Below are positions 3,916-61,309 of a DNA stretch of 64,000 nt, piece by piece (the stretch's first letter is position 1; each line of letters starts with the position of its first letter). The DNA lies in sequence record NC_004928.1. One strand, 5' to 3'. The translations under genes were made by a program, and so were the position numbers. Source of the DNA: Escherichia phage RB69. Below the pieces are notes generated by a model. It had not been told where the DNA came from, did not search any database, and was given only the letters and a program-made list of their open reading frames with translations.

Positions 3916-3945
3916 ACTATAATATAGTCCTATAATTGTGTAAAC
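3916..3945 (-). promoter_or_regulatory. sigma70-type early promoter inside inverted repeat (GTTTAC ... TATAGT)
   Basis: Minus strand GTTTACACAATTATAGGACTATATTATAGT; flanked by ataggact / agtcctat inverted repeat. Confidence 0.6.
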
Positions 3946-3957
3946 AGTTTTGCGAAA

Positions 3958-4914
3958 TTATTTGAAAGGTTTTACCATATGGAAATTTTGTTTGAAACGT
4001 TTGACGTAATCGTCATGTCCTAAACTTTGGTACATACTTACTACTTTGCTGTAGTTTTCCCAGGCATACTCACGGAACCAACCAGAGGTGATGCTTGTAC
4101 AGACTTTTTCCAATGCCATCATAAAACTGGCTTCAGGGTTAATTTTAAAGTCATTAGGAATTTGAGAACGTTCTAATGCTAGTACACATGATTCTTCGTA
4201 TACACCAGCCAATTTGACCATTTCTGGTAATGATTCGAACTTCTCGCGTGAGGTCATGACTTCAGAGCCGTCTTTCATATAAAATGTATACGCTGGACGG
4301 TCTGTTAGTGCAATGGCTTCATGAATAGTATCATGGTCATATGTATAGATGTCATCTTTAAAGAACGCACTTTTAGAAGTGTCAAGAACCGGGTGAGCAT
4401 AGTTCAAGGTTTCTTTCTGGCGTTTCAGCATAATTTCAGTAAGTTCATCGTTCAGTGTAACACCTTTACCACGAAGATACTGAATATGGTTCATAGTCTT
4501 TAAAAAGAATGGATTATTTTTCTTGAAACGATGAGACATCTTAATTGCAAGACATATCTCAGGAGTTGCCCAGTAAAACCCGTTCAAACGGTCTTTAGTC
4601 AAATTTTTCTTGGCGTATTTTAAAAGGTCATAAGAAGACGTGAAATCTTCAGGAGTGAGTTCACCGATTAATTCACGGACATTAGTGATTGCCGGAACAA
4701 TATATGCTTCAAAATGAGTTTCGCGTCCATTATGGAAGCATTTGAAAACTTGGACATCAGGGTTATCTTGGTGAACATATACACCCATCATTTGATTTTT
4801 GAATGCATTCCAAGAACATTGGTCCGCAATAAAGTCCCAATCGCTATTTTTGATAGCGCTAGAATCAATAAGACCGTGATAGTGAAGTGCACGAGAACCA
4901 ATAACCAACATCAT
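3958..4914 (-). CDS. hypothetical protein, possible nucleotidyltransferase fold
   Basis: 318 aa; N-terminal LVIGSRALHYHGLIDSSAIKNSDWDFIA resembles the hG[GS]...[DE]h[DE]h signature of pol-beta-type NTases (spacing longer than canonical). Confidence 0.6.
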   Translation of the reverse strand: MMLVIGSRALHYHGLIDSSAIKNSDWDFIADQCSWNAFKNQMMGVYVHQDNPDVQVFKCFHNGRETHFEAYIVPAITNVRELIGELTPEDFTSSYDLLKYAKKNLTKDRLNGFYWATPEICLAIKMSHRFKKNNPFFLKTMNHIQYLRGKGVTLNDELTEIMLKRQKETLNYAHPVLDTSKSAFFKDDIYTYDHDTIHEAIALTDRPAYTFYMKDGSEVMTSREKFESLPEMVKLAGVYEESCVLALERSQIPNDFKINPEASFMMALEKVCTSITSGWFREYAWENYSKVVSMYQSLGHDDYVKRFKQNFHMVKPFK

Positions 4915-4942
4915 AATATTTTCCTCTGATTAATTCATTAAC

Positions 4943-5194
4943 TTAAATTTCACGACATGCGATATCATATTCATCCCAGAGGTCATCGTGTGAAGCCTCT
5001 ACCAATGGAACGATTGTGCCGTTTATGTCTTCATTATAAGGGCAAATTGTACAGTGCGCATCTTCGAATCGGATGCCTTTGTGTTCAGATTTTTTATAAC
5101 GCATATCGAATATCTTTGCAAACTTTTCACGAGTAATGGTTTTAGCAACCACTTTGGTTCCGATACTTTCGTAATAAATCATTGTGGACTCCAT
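4943..5194 (-). CDS. hypothetical protein
   Basis: 83-aa ORF downstream of early promoter at 5211-5240. Confidence 0.5.
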   Translation of the reverse strand: MESTMIYYESIGTKVVAKTITREKFAKIFDMRYKKSEHKGIRFEDAHCTICPYNEDINGTIVPLVEASHDDLWDEYDIACREI

Positions 5195-5210
5195 TTAATT
5201 TGATAGGACT

Positions 5211-5240
5211 ACTATAACATAGCCCTATCTTGTTGTAAAC
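5211..5240 (-). promoter_or_regulatory. sigma70-type early promoter inside inverted repeat
   Basis: Minus strand GTTTAC(18)TATAGT within the tgataggactactataacatagccctatc element. Confidence 0.6.
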
Positions 5241-5244
5241 TGTT

Positions 5245-5442
5245 TTAGCAAGAATAACTAGATGATACCCAGCCTTGAACAGTAATACTATTATTTGATA
5301 ACGAGATTGCGTCCTGGAGATTCAGACCTGCGTTATCTTCAATCCATAATGTAACTTCTTCGCGTTCTTCTGTTGCAATTTGGAACAGGTTTTCCAGAGC
5401 AGCTACTGCCGTACGTACAGCACAATCTAATTCGCGAGACAT
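5245..5442 (-). CDS. small hypothetical protein, GWVxSSxxC C-terminal family
   Basis: 65 aa ending QGWVSSSYSC. Confidence 0.5.
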   Translation of the reverse strand: MSRELDCAVRTAVAALENLFQIATEEREEVTLWIEDNAGLNLQDAISLSNNSITVQGWVSSSYSC

Positions 5443-5451
5443 ATTGTTTCC

Positions 5452-5724
5452 TTAGCAAGTGTGAGAAGATGCGACCCAACCACCAGTTTCGAGGCTCAGG
5501 TTGTAGTCGTATTGGTAAACGTCAGCCCATTCAGCATAGCCGTTTTTTGTACAACGTTCAAGATCGGCTTTAAGATGTCCGGGTGAATGATAGGTTCCAC
5601 CCATACCATAAGCTGGGTACAAGTCGAATGTTGTGTTTTGTTTATCAGCAATTTCTTTGGCAGCCTCAATAGCTGCATAGATTTTTGCTACAGCTTCAGT
5701 CAGTTCGGTTTGTTCTTTAGACAT
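5452..5724 (-). CDS. small hypothetical protein, GWVxSSxxC C-terminal family
   Basis: 90 aa ending GGWVASSHTC; stop followed by GGAAACAAT and next ATG. Confidence 0.55.
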   Translation of the reverse strand: MSKEQTELTEAVAKIYAAIEAAKEIADKQNTTFDLYPAYGMGGTYHSPGHLKADLERCTKNGYAEWADVYQYDYNLSLETGGWVASSHTC

Positions 5725-5835: not shown

Positions 5836-6040
5836 ACCACTGGGATACGATTTCACCCTTAGGATAATAAGTACGACCGCTACCATAATCACCTACAGAA
5901 AATGATACGGCATATTGGTCTGCGATCTTTGTTGCTTCTTCTTCGATACGTTCAGCTTGATTCAGAAGTTTATAAATTGCATCTGAAGCGGATTTGGCAT
6001 CATTAAATTCTGGTACTTTAATTTCGATAATCTTACTCAT
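5825..6040 (-). CDS. hypothetical protein
   Basis: 71-aa ORF; AAGGA RBS upstream of ATG. Confidence 0.5.
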   Translation of the reverse strand: MSKIIEIKVPEFNDAKSASDAIYKLLNQAERIEEEATKIADQYAVSFSVGDYGSGRTYYPKGEIVSQWYEK

Positions 6041-6396
6041 TTTCTACATTCCTTAATAAAGTTTTCTATTGTTTCATTTTCACGTTTAGCTAGGAGTTCA
6101 TTATAACTAATCATTTGAGAAGCGTAAACCTTTTTATTTTTCTTGTTATGGTTTATAAAATCGTAGTAAAAATAGACTACAGTACAAAATGATGCGATGG
6201 ATGCAAAGGCTTGGGTATACCGTAAGTCCTGCCATTGGTCTGTGAATCCGCCAGTGTTTCCTATAAATCCTAACACAACGCCGTCAATAAGAAATCCAAC
6301 TAATCCAAAGGCAAATCCCATGCCAATACTCATAATAAAAATTAGAATGTTCTCACCAAGAGAAGGCCATACGGTTAAGAGTTGAGGCTTTTGCAT
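6037..6396 (-). CDS. hypothetical membrane protein, C-terminal FIxECR motif
   Basis: 119 aa; hydrophobic N-terminal half; ends ENFIKECRK. Confidence 0.55.
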   Translation of the reverse strand: MQKPQLLTVWPSLGENILIFIMSIGMGFAFGLVGFLIDGVVLGFIGNTGGFTDQWQDLRYTQAFASIASFCTVVYFYYDFINHNKKNKKVYASQMISYNELLAKRENETIENFIKECRK

Positions 6397-6770
6397 CTTA
6401 TTTCCTTAACGAATTCCATAGCTTCTTCATATTCATACTTTTTAACAGCTTCATCATACTGAGCTTGGGCTTTTGCGCACTGAACTTTCCACTCACGAAC
6501 TCGAGCTCTGTGATGACGGCCTTGGTGCCAATATCCTACCCAATTAATAGGCATTAATAAAAACGGTACAATAAGTGGTGCGACGAACATTAATGAAAAT
6601 GCTGCATCAGACGATATAACTTCACTAGAATCTAAAACAGCTCCTATAATCATAAAGATTAAAAATGCTAAAGCTAAAATAGGGCCAAATAGTACTTCAT
6701 TAGGAATTAATTTACGTTTGTATTCGTATGCCCAGGGCTTACTTGGCATGTATAGGGTTGGCTTTGACAT
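6375..6770 (-). CDS. hypothetical membrane protein (EFVKEIRC C-terminal motif)
   Basis: Track ORF 6375..6800; start moved to internal ATG at 6770 (start uncertain); two hydrophobic segments. Confidence 0.5.
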   Translation of the reverse strand: MSKPTLYMPSKPWAYEYKRKLIPNEVLFGPILALAFLIFMIIGAVLDSSEVISSDAAFSLMFVAPLIVPFLLMPINWVGYWHQGRHHRARVREWKVQCAKAQAQYDEAVKKYEYEEAMEFVKEIRCKSLNS

Positions 6771-7341
6771 ATTCTCTACATTCCATAATAAATTGCTCAA
6801 GGATTAAATTGTTAGTGAAATTAGGACTAACAACCATAGTTTCATAAAGCGCATCAATAGCACTTAAAGCATCAACTCTTTTAAGCAAAGGCTTGCCTTC
6901 ATACATAGTTTCAGAATCGATGATTAACGTAAAGTAATATTTTTTATTATCGACTAGAACTTCTGTATCGATATAAAACATATTAGACCTCAGAAGCTTA
7001 TCTCTAAAACCATAATAATCTTCAGAGCGTTCGCTGATATATTCCCATTCAGTGTTTAAACAACAAACAGACCATGTAGGAGCAACGAAATCAGTGAATC
7101 TAATATCATGGTCTGCAACTAGTTTAGCAATAGCTCCGATATCATGAATCATAATACCTGGGGCTAATAAAGATTTTCTGCTATGGCTAGCCGTTTTCTC
7201 GGTGGTCTCATAAGAAGACGACCAGTACCATTTACGTCCGGTTGCAACATATCGTAATGAATCAACTAAAGACGTAGGTGGATTTACCTTATCTCGGAAC
7301 TCTTCAAACATTGAGTCAATATCATTATTTTGGTTTCGCAT
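6739..7341 (-). CDS. hypothetical protein with FIMECR motif near C-terminus
   Basis: Track ORF 6739..7362; ATG at 7341 follows a terminator hairpin and AAGGAG RBS. Confidence 0.55.
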   Translation of the reverse strand: MRNQNNDIDSMFEEFRDKVNPPTSLVDSLRYVATGRKWYWSSSYETTEKTASHSRKSLLAPGIMIHDIGAIAKLVADHDIRFTDFVAPTWSVCCLNTEWEYISERSEDYYGFRDKLLRSNMFYIDTEVLVDNKKYYFTLIIDSETMYEGKPLLKRVDALSAIDALYETMVVSPNFTNNLILEQFIMECREYVKANPIHAK

Positions 7342-7356
7342 GTTAACTCCTTTATT

Positions 7357-7384
7357 ATCCAAAAGGAGGACCGGAGTCCTCCGT
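7357..7384 (-). terminator. hairpin plus T-tract terminator
   Basis: Minus strand GGAGGACTCCGGTCCTCC followed by TTTTGG, directly after the 7391..7984 gene. Confidence 0.6.
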
Positions 7385-7390
7385 ATTATT

Positions 7391-7984
7391 TTATTTCAAA
7401 GAGTTAATATATTCTTGTACATCAGCAGAAGTGGTTTCGACACCAGCTGGAGTGCCATTGAACGTTTCAACACGAGTCAGAGTGTCTTCGATATCAACCT
7501 TAGTCAGTGCAGCGATTTCAATTACATCATCGGCCGTAGAGATACCAAGGGCATTGGCTGCTCGAGTTTCACGAATGTATTCGAGTTTGATTGCCAGATT
7601 CTGACGAGCATCATCAAGTTCAACCACCTTACGAGCAATTTCAATTCGCATAGCGGCATACCCGTCAGCTTTTGTATTAAGTTGTTCGGCAGTTCGACGA
7701 TACAGAAGACCAAGCTTAGCATGCATGGTAACATCTTGTCCTTCAGCCAAGAGCTTACGAATTTCACGTTCCTTAGAAGCGGCTTGCTTGTTCTTTTCAT
7801 TAACAAGTTCGCGAATACGTTTTTCTTCATTAATAGATTTAACAGAAGCCGTTTTTAGTTCTTTGATTTGGGTAATCAACTTATCTGCAGCTGCGTTATA
7901 CTGTTCTTCGACAGTCAGATTTTTAGCCATAGCAGTACCCAGTTTAGTGCGGATGAATTCAACAAGTTTCTTCAGTGTGTTCAT
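7391..7984 (-). CDS. coiled-coil protein, possibly PspA/IM30-like
   Basis: About 197 aa, predominantly helical with charged heptad-like pattern; start at ATG 7984 (track start 7999 is a TTG); family assignment is an unverified impression. Confidence 0.55.
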
Positions 7985-8025
7985 ATTATTACCTTTCAAT
8001 TGGTGGTTTATTATCCAACGAGAGC

Positions 8026-8054
8026 ATTATACTCTGCTCTCAAGAGTTTGTAAA
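8026..8054 (-). promoter_or_regulatory. sigma70 promoter (TTTACA, 17-nt spacer, TATAAT) with inverted repeat around -10
   Basis: Minus strand TTTACAAACTCTTGAGAGCAGAGTATAAT; GAGAGCA / TGCTCTC inverted repeat flanks the -10. Confidence 0.65.
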
Positions 8055-8282
8055 TTATTTTTTAATCAAATTGACATAAAACTTGGCGTCTTCGGGGTGC
8101 ATGCCTTCGCAGTATTCTTCAACCATGAACTTCTTAACAGCTTCATAAGGACCACTCAGATTAAGCTCAGTTGTCCAGAACTTGGAATCTTGGACTGAAT
8201 CGATACGAACTTCAGGGTGTCGGTTGCGAATAACTTCTTCGGTGTATTCATAATCAACGACATCAATACTAACTTTAGCCAT
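8055..8282 (-). CDS. hypothetical protein
   Basis: 75-aa ORF downstream of early promoter 8311-8340. Confidence 0.5.
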   Translation of the reverse strand: MAKVSIDVVDYEYTEEVIRNRHPEVRIDSVQDSKFWTTELNLSGPYEAVKKFMVEEYCEGMHPEDAKFYVNLIKK

Positions 8283-8310: not shown

Positions 8311-8340
8311 ACTATAACATAAACTTACTTAGATGTAAAT
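8311..8340 (-). promoter_or_regulatory. sigma70-type early promoter inside inverted repeat
   Basis: Minus strand ATTTAC(18)TATAGT within ttgataggactactataacat element. Confidence 0.55.
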
Positions 8341-45561: not shown

Positions 45562-45591
45562 ATAGTATCACATACCAAATACGTTGTAAAC
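45562..45591 (-). promoter_or_regulatory. sigma70-type early promoter (GTTTAC ... ATACTA), duplicate of the 8.5 kb cassette
   Basis: Minus strand GTTTAC(18)ATACTA; downstream RBS-start sequence CAGAGGAGTAAACAAAATGACT is near-identical to 8491-8515. Confidence 0.5.
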
Positions 45592-48319: not shown

Positions 48320-48516
48320 TTCTTCACCTTTTTGTTAATCAAACGTTTACGGTATACAACTTTTTCTTTTGCTTTAAACTTTGACCGAGCTGTCTCGGCT
48401 TTAGTCCATAGTAATCCAACTTCTTTAGGTTGTAAACCGATTTTTTGAGCAATTTCTACGAATGAAAATCCCGCCTCATGTAATGTATAAACTTCAACTT
48501 CAGCTCTCATAATCAA
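48316..48516 (-). CDS. small protein with helix-turn-helix-like segment
   Basis: 66 aa; AGFSFVEIAQKIGLQPKEVGLLW resembles an HTH; basic C-terminal tail. Confidence 0.5.
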   Translation of the reverse strand: MIMRAEVEVYTLHEAGFSFVEIAQKIGLQPKEVGLLWTKAETARSKFKAKEKVVYRKRLINKKVKK

Positions 48517-61250: not shown

Positions 61251-61281
61251 AACGGTTTCCTCATGTTGTTGATGGGATGAT

Positions 61282-61309
61282 AGTATAACACATCCATGTG
61301 CTTGTAAAC
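61282..61309 (-). promoter_or_regulatory. sigma70-type early promoter
   Basis: Minus strand GTTTAC(16)TATACT. Confidence 0.5.

Follow-up and report, generated by a model that had tools for sequence, protein, structure and literature searches.

Background

PspA was named after its induction by phage and is now recognised as a bacterial ESCRT-III protein. The α0-α3 region of E. coli PspA carries the determinants of its interaction with PspF and with PspBC, while the C-terminal region of PspA and of Vipp1 (IM30) supplies the α5 contact that builds their polymers. That a phage might encode a protein of this type has been suggested in print for one phage. Gendre et al. 2022 (PMC9409062) called Gp_125 of Salmonella phage SeF3a, a Kuttervirus of the Ackermannviridae, a PspA homologue: HHblits comparison of this PHROG 1203 protein with pdb70 pointed to PspA, and the authors proposed that it might prevent the loss of PMF brought about by abortive-infection systems. 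The argument there is sequence-based only, the gene is presented as something peculiar to a few Kutterviruses and, as far as the text shows, no connection is drawn with e.6 of T4 or with the more than 1100 genomes considered below. In a full-text literature search neither PspA encoded by a phage nor phrog_1203 came up again, and there was nothing on the function of e.6, which was met only in the supplement of a T4 omics study (PMC9697503) and is absent from the CRISPRi-ART preprint and its supplement.

The subject here is the e.6 orthologue of Escherichia phage RB69. Its product very probably belongs, as a compact and highly divergent member, to the PspA/IM30 (Vipp1) branch of the ESCRT-III superfamily. 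A PspA-like e.6 does not make a system of a new kind, the likeness having been noted once before in print, for the Kuttervirus relative. What can be added is the reach of the family, the transcription unit in which the gene lies, and a reading of what such a protein might do for a lytic phage.

The e.6 locus of RB69

The window, that is, the whole analysed stretch of 64,000 nucleotides of RB69 DNA (NC_004928.1), is approximately 99% identical at the DNA level to Mosigvirus phages, among them Escherichia phage vB_EcoM_G2469. The gene occupies positions 7391..7984 of the minus strand (594 nt, stop codon at 7391-7393) and specifies a protein of 197 amino acids that is 88.3% identical to T4 e.6 (approximately 88% to T2 e.6); judged by its sequence, it is the Mosigvirus orthologue of T4/T2 e.6. 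The longest mechanical ORF begins further upstream, with a TTG at 7999. The start is nevertheless assigned to the ATG at 7984, because the starts of homologues agree on it (an equivalent start, M..LKK, is present in all 37 aligned homologues) and because a Shine-Dalgarno sequence, AAAGG (7992..7996, minus strand), stands 7 nt to its 5' side. The extent that the original prediction had given to its product of roughly 197 residues is thus correct. Two plus-strand ORFs overlap the gene (7340-7858 and 7725-8198); since they are broken by 3 to 6 stop codons in T4 and T2, they are unconserved and are rejected as chance ORFs.

The setting is the early, leftward-transcribed, hyperplastic region that extends from the lysozyme gene to the tRNA genes, where e.6 lies among other small early genes. 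On its 3' side are e.5 and, beyond it, the genes e.4 and e.3 for predicted membrane proteins; on its 5' side is an FRD3-family gene in the RB69 stretch and e.7 in T4. The placement of e.6 directly upstream of e.5 and the small membrane proteins e.4, e.3 and e.2 is general in the Tevenvirinae, and in Klebsiella phage May the e.6-family gene also adjoins a gene for a membrane protein. Does e.6 then have a steady partner? None was found across clades by BLASTP and PHROG assignment: e.5 (phrog_2607), the gene that follows in phages GAP161 and CfP1 (phrog_10543) and the May membrane protein (phrog_11433) are mutually unrelated, the sole resemblance among them being between 'LEQFIMECREYV' and 'MEKFIHSCKKNV', at E 0.45. 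Nor does a conserved partner speak for any of the alternative readings of e.6 considered below.

The neighbourhood does not look like a psp operon. Neighbouring genes and their Pfam matches yielded no relative of PspF, PspB or PspC, and there are no Psp-related Pfam matches in e.5, e.4, e.3, the FRD3-like protein or a 54-aa ORF at 8329-8493. The association that marks a Psp system, PspF/PspB/PspC genes together with a σ54 promoter, was not found at this locus, the e.6 promoter being of the σ70 early type. A PADLOC search gave no defence-system match for e.6 or its neighbours.

A predicted single-gene transcription unit

The top promoter-like site of the region, TTTACA-17-TATAAT at 8054..8026 of the minus strand, matches at 11 of 12 positions; it begins immediately past the FRD3-like stop codon and has an A-rich tract upstream. 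It is of the T4 early (σ70) type. Seven sites in the window fit the T4 early pattern TTTACW-N17-TAYWAT, where chance alone would yield 0.27, and all seven are on the minus strand; T4 e.6 has GTTTACA-17-TATTAT at the equivalent position, and candidate σ70-like promoters can be picked out by eye in GAP161 (TTGACT-17-TAGTAT) and in Aeromonas phage 65 (TTGACG-17-GATACT). The timing that such a promoter implies is borne out in T4, for which time-resolved omics place e.6 in the class "early-RNA_middle-Protein", with the protein detected (PMC9697503 supplements).

The -10 box is enclosed by an inverted repeat of 7 bp, GAGAGCA/TGCTCTC (8020..8041, minus strand; -11.7 kcal/mol, z -2.7). Phage VR25 has a hairpin of different sequence at the same position (-12.4 kcal/mol). 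Arrangements of this sort have a name: the PeSL (promoter-early stem-loop) cassettes of T4-like phages were reportedly described by Arbiol and colleagues in 2010. Krisch and colleagues define the PeSL as an early promoter combined with a stem-loop in the hyperplastic regions of T4-like phages (Comeau et al. 2014, PMC4122927). At e.6 there is an early promoter of the clade consensus (T4/PST-type, TTTACW-N17-TAYWAT) and a stem-loop, in a hyperplastic region, and the two together make up a PeSL-like composite element, of a kind already known. It differs from the described cassettes in that the stem encloses the -10 box and in that e.6 is widely conserved and not an ORFan.

At its other end the gene has what reads as an intrinsic terminator, with a GC-rich stem of 7 bp, a UCCG loop and a run of U (GGAGGAC-UCCG-GUCCUCC followed by UUUU; 7361..7382, minus strand; -14.4 kcal/mol, z -2.8). 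It is also annotated in the 99%-identical phage G2469 (MK327934), and a GC-rich hairpin follows the e.6 stop codon in 10 of the 10 orthologues inspected, from Tequatrovirus to Taipeivirus. The strong T4 early promoter and the gene's own terminator delimit what is, on this sequence evidence, a single-gene transcription unit. The original prediction had already described the gene as that of an early protein with a near-consensus σ70 promoter, wrapped in an inverted repeat, and with a terminator of its own, and each of these elements proved to be in place.

A side observation concerns the 11-mer TGGATAATAAA, which flanks e.6 as an exact repeat (minus strand, downstream copy at 7351..7361 and upstream copy at 8007..8017). 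These are its only two exact copies in the 64 kb, and each lies just past a hairpin.

Relationship to PspA and Vipp1

Taken alone, the RB69 protein discloses little of its ancestry. It has no match to PF04012, the Pfam model to which E. coli PspA belongs, even at E<=10, and nothing specific to it was found in Pfam, NCBIfam or the PDB sequences, which returned weak coiled-coil noise only. A profile made from close homologues (A2) reaches Vipp1 among PDB sequences only at E about 1-2. The PDB-level signal requires the diverse members that the search of representative proteins supplied: when 37 of them, down to 17% identity, are aligned (A3) and the resulting HMM is run against all PDB sequences, the top eight matches are all Vipp1 or PspA, with E values between 5e-5 and 1.3e-3 and a collinear alignment that runs from residue 1 to about 146. 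Distant members of the family also approach PspA by themselves. Two, P0063 and P0057, score 39.0 and 35.1 bits against PF04012, above its gathering threshold of 33.9 bits, and PF04012 is the best sub-threshold match of three others (P0062 and the GAP161 and CfP1 orthologues).

Comparison of profile with profile gives the same answer. In hhalign, A3 and a PspA+Vipp1 profile align over 170 columns (Prob 92.6%, E 4e-7), with an identity to PspA of roughly 11-12%. The template is shallow (Neff 1.6; six enterobacterial PspA sequences, to which Vipp1 residues 1-152 were added from the A3/PDB alignment), because the PspA collection yielded only Enterobacterales sequences that are at least 80% identical. 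Structure comparison concurs: Foldseek searches with two independent AF2 models are led by Vipp1/PspA (the top 8 and the top 11 matches, respectively), followed by archaeal CdvB2.

With eukaryotic and archaeal ESCRT-III (Snf7/CHMP, CdvB) the relation holds at the level of the superfamily only: the Pfam results include no match to the Snf7 profile (PF03357), the structural likeness is confined to the hairpin core, and a Vps4/MIM partner is not evident. BAR domains, which are recognised by a sequence-profile match together with a crescent dimer, were also considered, and neither was found for the e.6 orthologue.

The original prediction, an impression that the protein might be PspA/IM30-like, is upheld by these several lines of evidence: the A3 search of the PDB, the members that pass PF04012, hhalign and its controls (described below), Foldseek, and the published HHblits result for the Kuttervirus relative. 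The combination that it had set against itself, absence of any PspA/IM30 profile match together with homologues of another function, is not what was found.

Predicted anatomy of the protein

In the two AF2 models (pLDDT 76 and 81) helices span residues 2-22, 25-80, 86-145, 151-160, 166-174 and 186-196, which agrees with the almost entirely helical protein that had been predicted. Basic and acidic residues are nearly balanced (K+R = 32, D+E = 31). Like PspA, the protein would be peripheral to the membrane: no transmembrane segment was found, the maximum of KD19 being 1.06. A reading as an Rz-like spanin or LysB was tried and rejected. The profile matches that point that way are weak ones, phrog_1267 with an E of 0.042 and TIGR03495 with 15.6 bits where the cutoff is 92.75, and a spanin role is excluded because transmembrane (or signal-anchor) and lipobox segments are absent.

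The first helix (codons 2-22; 7919..7981, minus strand) is cationic and amphipathic, the equivalent of α0 of PspA and Vipp1. Its hydrophobic moment (muH) is 0.43, compared with 0.42 for the corresponding helix of E. coli PspA; across the 37 family members the mean muH is 0.41 and the mean net charge +2.8, with 36 of the 37 positively charged. A PspA-type α0 is thus present, and its role as the membrane-binding element is a prediction from sequence and model.

Helix α1 (codons 25-80; 7745..7912) and helix α2/3 (codons 86-145; 7550..7729), both on the minus strand, form the two arms of a hairpin, with a turn at residues 81-85. The assignment draws on the AF2 models, on the HMM alignment to Vipp1 and on hhalign. 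Block-mean pLDDT rises from about 77 to 97 along the first arm and lies at about 87-94 along the second. In the models, then, the e.6 orthologue has the α1/α2+3 coiled-coil hairpin of PspA. Within α1, residues 50-56, S-I-N-E-E-K-R, match T-I-A-E-E-K-R of Vipp1.

The C-terminal region (codons 146-197; 7394..7549, minus strand) is modelled with low to moderate confidence as three small helices (pLDDT 50-85 for 151-160, 166-174 and 186-196). It has conserved motifs of its own in the e.6 family: LGI..DDV, V(E/D)TF and a terminal D..YL.SL. The hhalign alignment extends with good confidence to PspA residue 172, and weakly to 213. In the region of α4, T-R-V-E-T-F pairs with A-R-F-E-S-F; the pairing of α5 has negligible confidence and includes a gap of 21 residues. 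The three helices are possible equivalents of α4 and α5, shorter by approximately 21 residues than the PspA region. Whether e.6 can polymerise is uncertain on this model, because the α4/α5 equivalents are short, poorly modelled and weakly aligned.

How close, then, is e.6 to its described relatives? In E. coli PspA (PF04012; PDB 4WHE, 7ABK) the elements follow one another as they do in e.6, with an amphipathic α0, then a linker and an α1/α2-3 hairpin with its turn near residues 80-85, and the size is similar (222 aa, compared with 197 for e.6). The low identity sets the two apart, as do the linker, in which the AEDP motif of PspA is replaced by N-x-S/T-x-E-D, and the shorter α4/α5 region. The genetic context differs as well: e.6 is a gene of lytic phages, under an early σ70 promoter instead of σ54/PspF, and comes without the PspF, PspB and PspC partners. 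Vipp1/IM30 (Synechocystis sll0617; PDB 7O3W, 6ZVR, 8QFV) is the best match of e.6 by sequence profile and by Foldseek, and shares with it the cationic amphipathic α0 and the motif (S/T)-I-(N/A)-E-E-K-R at residues 50-56; e.6 differs in lacking the C-terminal extension (α6) of Vipp1 and any link with thylakoids, and an e.6 polymer is hypothetical.

Prevalence and annotation

The RB69 gene product matches PHROG 1203, which is listed as of "unknown function", at E 5e-87. When 1.8 billion representative proteins were searched exhaustively with a profile, 45 representatives came back, a small closed family in which the full-length members have roughly 195-209 residues and the remainder are shorter fragments. 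In nucleotide records it is anything but rare: tblastn finds it in 1108 phage records of Straboviridae, Aeromonas phages included, and distant members extend it to the Ackermannviridae, for example Klebsiella phage May. By these matches the family spans more than 1100 genomes of the Straboviridae and Ackermannviridae.

Canonical PspA detectable by BLAST is present in two of 50,697 phage records, both of them metagenomic contigs. With canonical PspA so nearly absent from phages, e.6 is, as far as homology searches can tell, the family that chiefly represents PspA-like proteins in cultured phages, masked by its divergence.

Most GenBank and UniRef entries label members of the family hypothetical; some call them "host specificity protein" or "tail completion protein". 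The analysis gave no support to either label. Could e.6 be a virion or host-range protein all the same? That reading is extremely improbable: the annotations themselves are all that speaks for it, and against it stand the lack of similarity to any tail or host-specificity family, the early promoter and early RNA, the location in the early e-to-tRNA hyperplastic region, and the hypothetical status of e.6 in most records.

What might e.6 do?

The proposal that seems best to fit these findings follows from what infection does to the host. T4-type phages globally shut off host transcription, and the host is consequently unable to induce its σ54/PspF-dependent psp operon. A phage that needed a PspA-type effector would therefore have to bring its own, and an early σ70 promoter would be the means of supplying it. 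The protein would accumulate in the cytoplasm soon after infection and bind the cytoplasmic membrane on its inner face by way of α0; through its hairpin it would self-assemble, in the manner of PspA and Vipp1, into a polymer that covers the membrane and limits the leakage of protons, and the membrane would be kept energised until programmed lysis. Several insults are candidates for what it might guard against: damage done by genome injection or by superinfection, the accumulation of holin and other membrane proteins of the phage, and abortive-infection systems that collapse the PMF. T4 already provides a precedent for the last of these: RIIA and RIIB are membrane-associated early proteins that counter the PMF-collapsing Rex system. 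Their role is of the kind proposed here for e.6; the parallel is a functional analogy only, the proteins being unrelated in sequence and structure.

These propositions are not all equally secure. A divergent PspA-like e.6 that guards the host inner membrane is, on balance, the probable explanation of the findings as a whole. The membrane- or PMF-protecting role taken as a separate claim, argued from analogy with PspA, is plausible and held tentatively. The most elaborate version of the proposal makes e.6 an ESCRT-III-superfamily polymer of the Straboviridae and the ViI-like Ackermannviridae that is made within minutes, coats the inner membrane and holds the PMF after the host Psp response has been silenced, either as a counter-defence against depolarising Abi systems or in order to safeguard the timing of lysis; it is speculative and rather unlikely to be right in full. 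The e-to-tRNA region of T4 can be deleted in the laboratory, and any role of e.6 would then be a conditional one.

A PspA-like polymer might also serve the membrane in some way other than the repair of general damage: it might time or inhibit lysis by buffering the depolarisation caused by the holin, or it might shape or anchor sites of replication or head assembly. This possibility shares with membrane protection all the evidence of homology to PspA and Vipp1, and the membrane proteins encoded nearby (e.4, e.3 and e.2 in the Tevenvirinae, a neighbour in May) could be counted in its favour. It is nonetheless unlikely: the terminator parts e.6 from the genes downstream, the neighbours are not conserved between clades, and expression that is early rather than late suits a purely lysis-stage role poorly.

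A second alternative keeps the homology and moves the target from the membrane to host regulation. As a PspA mimic, e.6 might bind PspF or PspB/PspC and so block or hijack the Psp response, or it might titrate host PspA polymers. The part of e.6 that is best conserved with PspA is precisely α0-α3, and early expression suits a host-takeover factor. Against this, global host shut-off makes a repressor of one σ54 operon seem redundant; the conserved, cationic and amphipathic α0 favours binding to membranes; the family also occurs in Aeromonas phages; and an identity to PspA of only about 11% makes a conserved interface with PspF doubtful. We consider such mimicry somewhat less probable than another membrane task for the polymer.

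The third alternative denies the homology: e.6 could be an unrelated coiled-coil scaffold or adaptor whose likeness to PspA is convergent or merely compositional. The controls of the hhalign comparison speak against this: with either profile reversed, or in 30 shufflings of the PspA columns, the score falls from 46.8 to values of 8-18 and the probability does not exceed 1%; since the signal is lost in this way, it does not come from coiled-coil composition. The matches, moreover, are collinear from residue 1 and cover α0 and the linker, not heptads alone; two members score above the curated PF04012 threshold of Pfam; and the N-termini of the Ackermannviridae members, SLIKRIFRIAEANVN (S-L-I-K-R-I-F-R-I-A-E-A-N-V-N), closely resemble that of PspA/Vipp1, GIFSRFADIVNANIN (G-I-F-S-R-F-A-D-I-V-N-A-N-I-N). 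An unrelated coiled coil is therefore improbable, the least favoured of these three.

Implications

If the preferred reading, a divergent PspA-like protein at the host inner membrane, is right, these phages probably carry a "phage shock protein" of their own, which would keep the inner membrane of the host intact during infection. A cryptic PspA-like protein in T4 and more than a thousand of its relatives provides a function-level hypothesis for a conserved early gene that has been "hypothetical" until now, and the hypothesis is directly testable by T4 genetics. One can think of e.6 in two ways. For the student of PspA and ESCRT-III it is a small, divergent and genetically tractable member with which to probe the minimum required for assembly. 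For the student of phage development it suggests that the upkeep of an energised host membrane is managed by the phage. Should e.6 turn out to counter defences that collapse the PMF, it would represent a new class of anti-defence protein; and if the proposal as a whole is true, it would be the first PspA/ESCRT-III system of membrane protection encoded by a virus for which a role is defined, in the best-studied of phages.

Hairpins and a repeated 11-mer on either side of e.6

A GC-rich hairpin lies immediately 3' of the e.6 stop codon in every one of the ten orthologous loci that were inspected (the window itself and loci L002, L003, L004, L005, L086, L087, L088, L089 and L090). Across these loci the hairpin is conserved in structure but not in sequence: UUCG or GAAA tetraloops are frequent, and a run of U follows the stem in only some of them. 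The post-e.6 hairpin may set the stability of e.6 mRNA, or the level of e.6 relative to the downstream genes.

The 11-mer TGGATAATAAA has just two exact copies in the 64-kb window, one on either side of e.6 (upstream at 8007-8017 and downstream at 7351-7361, both on the minus strand), each preceded by a hairpin at a distance of 2-3 nt. Because these hairpin-adjoining copies stand on both sides, e.6 is bracketed by "hairpin + TGGATAATAAA + SD" modules; the same GGATAATAAA is present 3' of hairpins in VR25 and Mineola. The modules may mark the limits of PeSL-type (promoter-early stem-loop) cassettes, or they may reflect a shared intergenic design.

Upstream of e.6 in the window, a stem-loop at 8020-8041 overlaps the -10 region, and relatives have one as well. 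It is kept in VR25 (1440-1480 of locus L086), but with an entirely different stem sequence (GGGAACAUG/UAUGUUCCC, -12.4 kcal/mol). The T2 stem-loop (3945-3985 of locus L004) is weaker, and the TTTACA and TATAAT boxes of T2 are separated by just 12 nt, a spacing that suggests that the T2 e.6 promoter may be impaired.

Neighbors of e.6

Directly upstream of e.6 the window has a gene of the Phage_FRD3 family (8055-8282, minus strand; PF05798, E 1e-38), whereas T4 carries e.7 at this place: an example of gene replacement in a hyperplastic region. Just downstream of the PspA-like e.6 are encoded two predicted small membrane proteins, e.4 (6375-6770, minus strand), with two hydrophobic segments, and e.3 (6037-6396, minus strand), with one strong hydrophobic segment; each ends in a charged helical C-terminal tail. 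This layout of a PspA-like gene and membrane-protein genes recalls PspA with PspB and PspC; homology of e.4 and e.3 to PspB/PspC was looked for and not found. The C-terminus of e.5 (6739-7341, minus strand), LEQFIMECREYV, faintly resembles that of the gene following e.6 in GAP161 and CfP1 (4624-5568 of locus L002), MEKFIHSCKKNV; the match is not significant (BLASTP E 0.45), and the two proteins fall into separate PHROGs (2607 for e.5, 10543 for the GAP161 and CfP1 protein).

Canonical PspA and the annotation of the e.6 family

Canonical PspA is detectable by BLAST in only two of 50,697 phage records, MT835668.1 (3476-4144) and MT839532.1 (2206-2883), both of them metagenomic contigs named "Bacteriophage sp." and viral by record label; their PspA proteins are 28-32% identical to that of E. 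coli.

Many GenBank records (H25, H32, H35, H82, H89 and other hits) and UniRef names label e.6 orthologues "host specificity protein" or "tail completion protein". No support for these labels was found, and they look like propagated misannotations. Two metagenomic proteins join an N-terminal part of e.6 to unrelated domains (P0035, residues 1-111 with PF02774; P0039, residues 1-84 with PF17782 and PF01978). Their source contigs are shorter than 1 kb, and the fusions are probably assembly chimeras.

Early promoters across the window

The T4/PST early-promoter consensus TTTACW-N17-TAYWAT is matched exactly at seven sites in the window, where 0.27 would be expected by chance, and every one of them is on the minus strand: 891-919, 8026-8054 (the e.6 promoter), 9231-9259, 13144-13172, 45562-45590, 48408-48436 and 61280-61308. 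Together these seven sites provide a map of the window's early transcription units.
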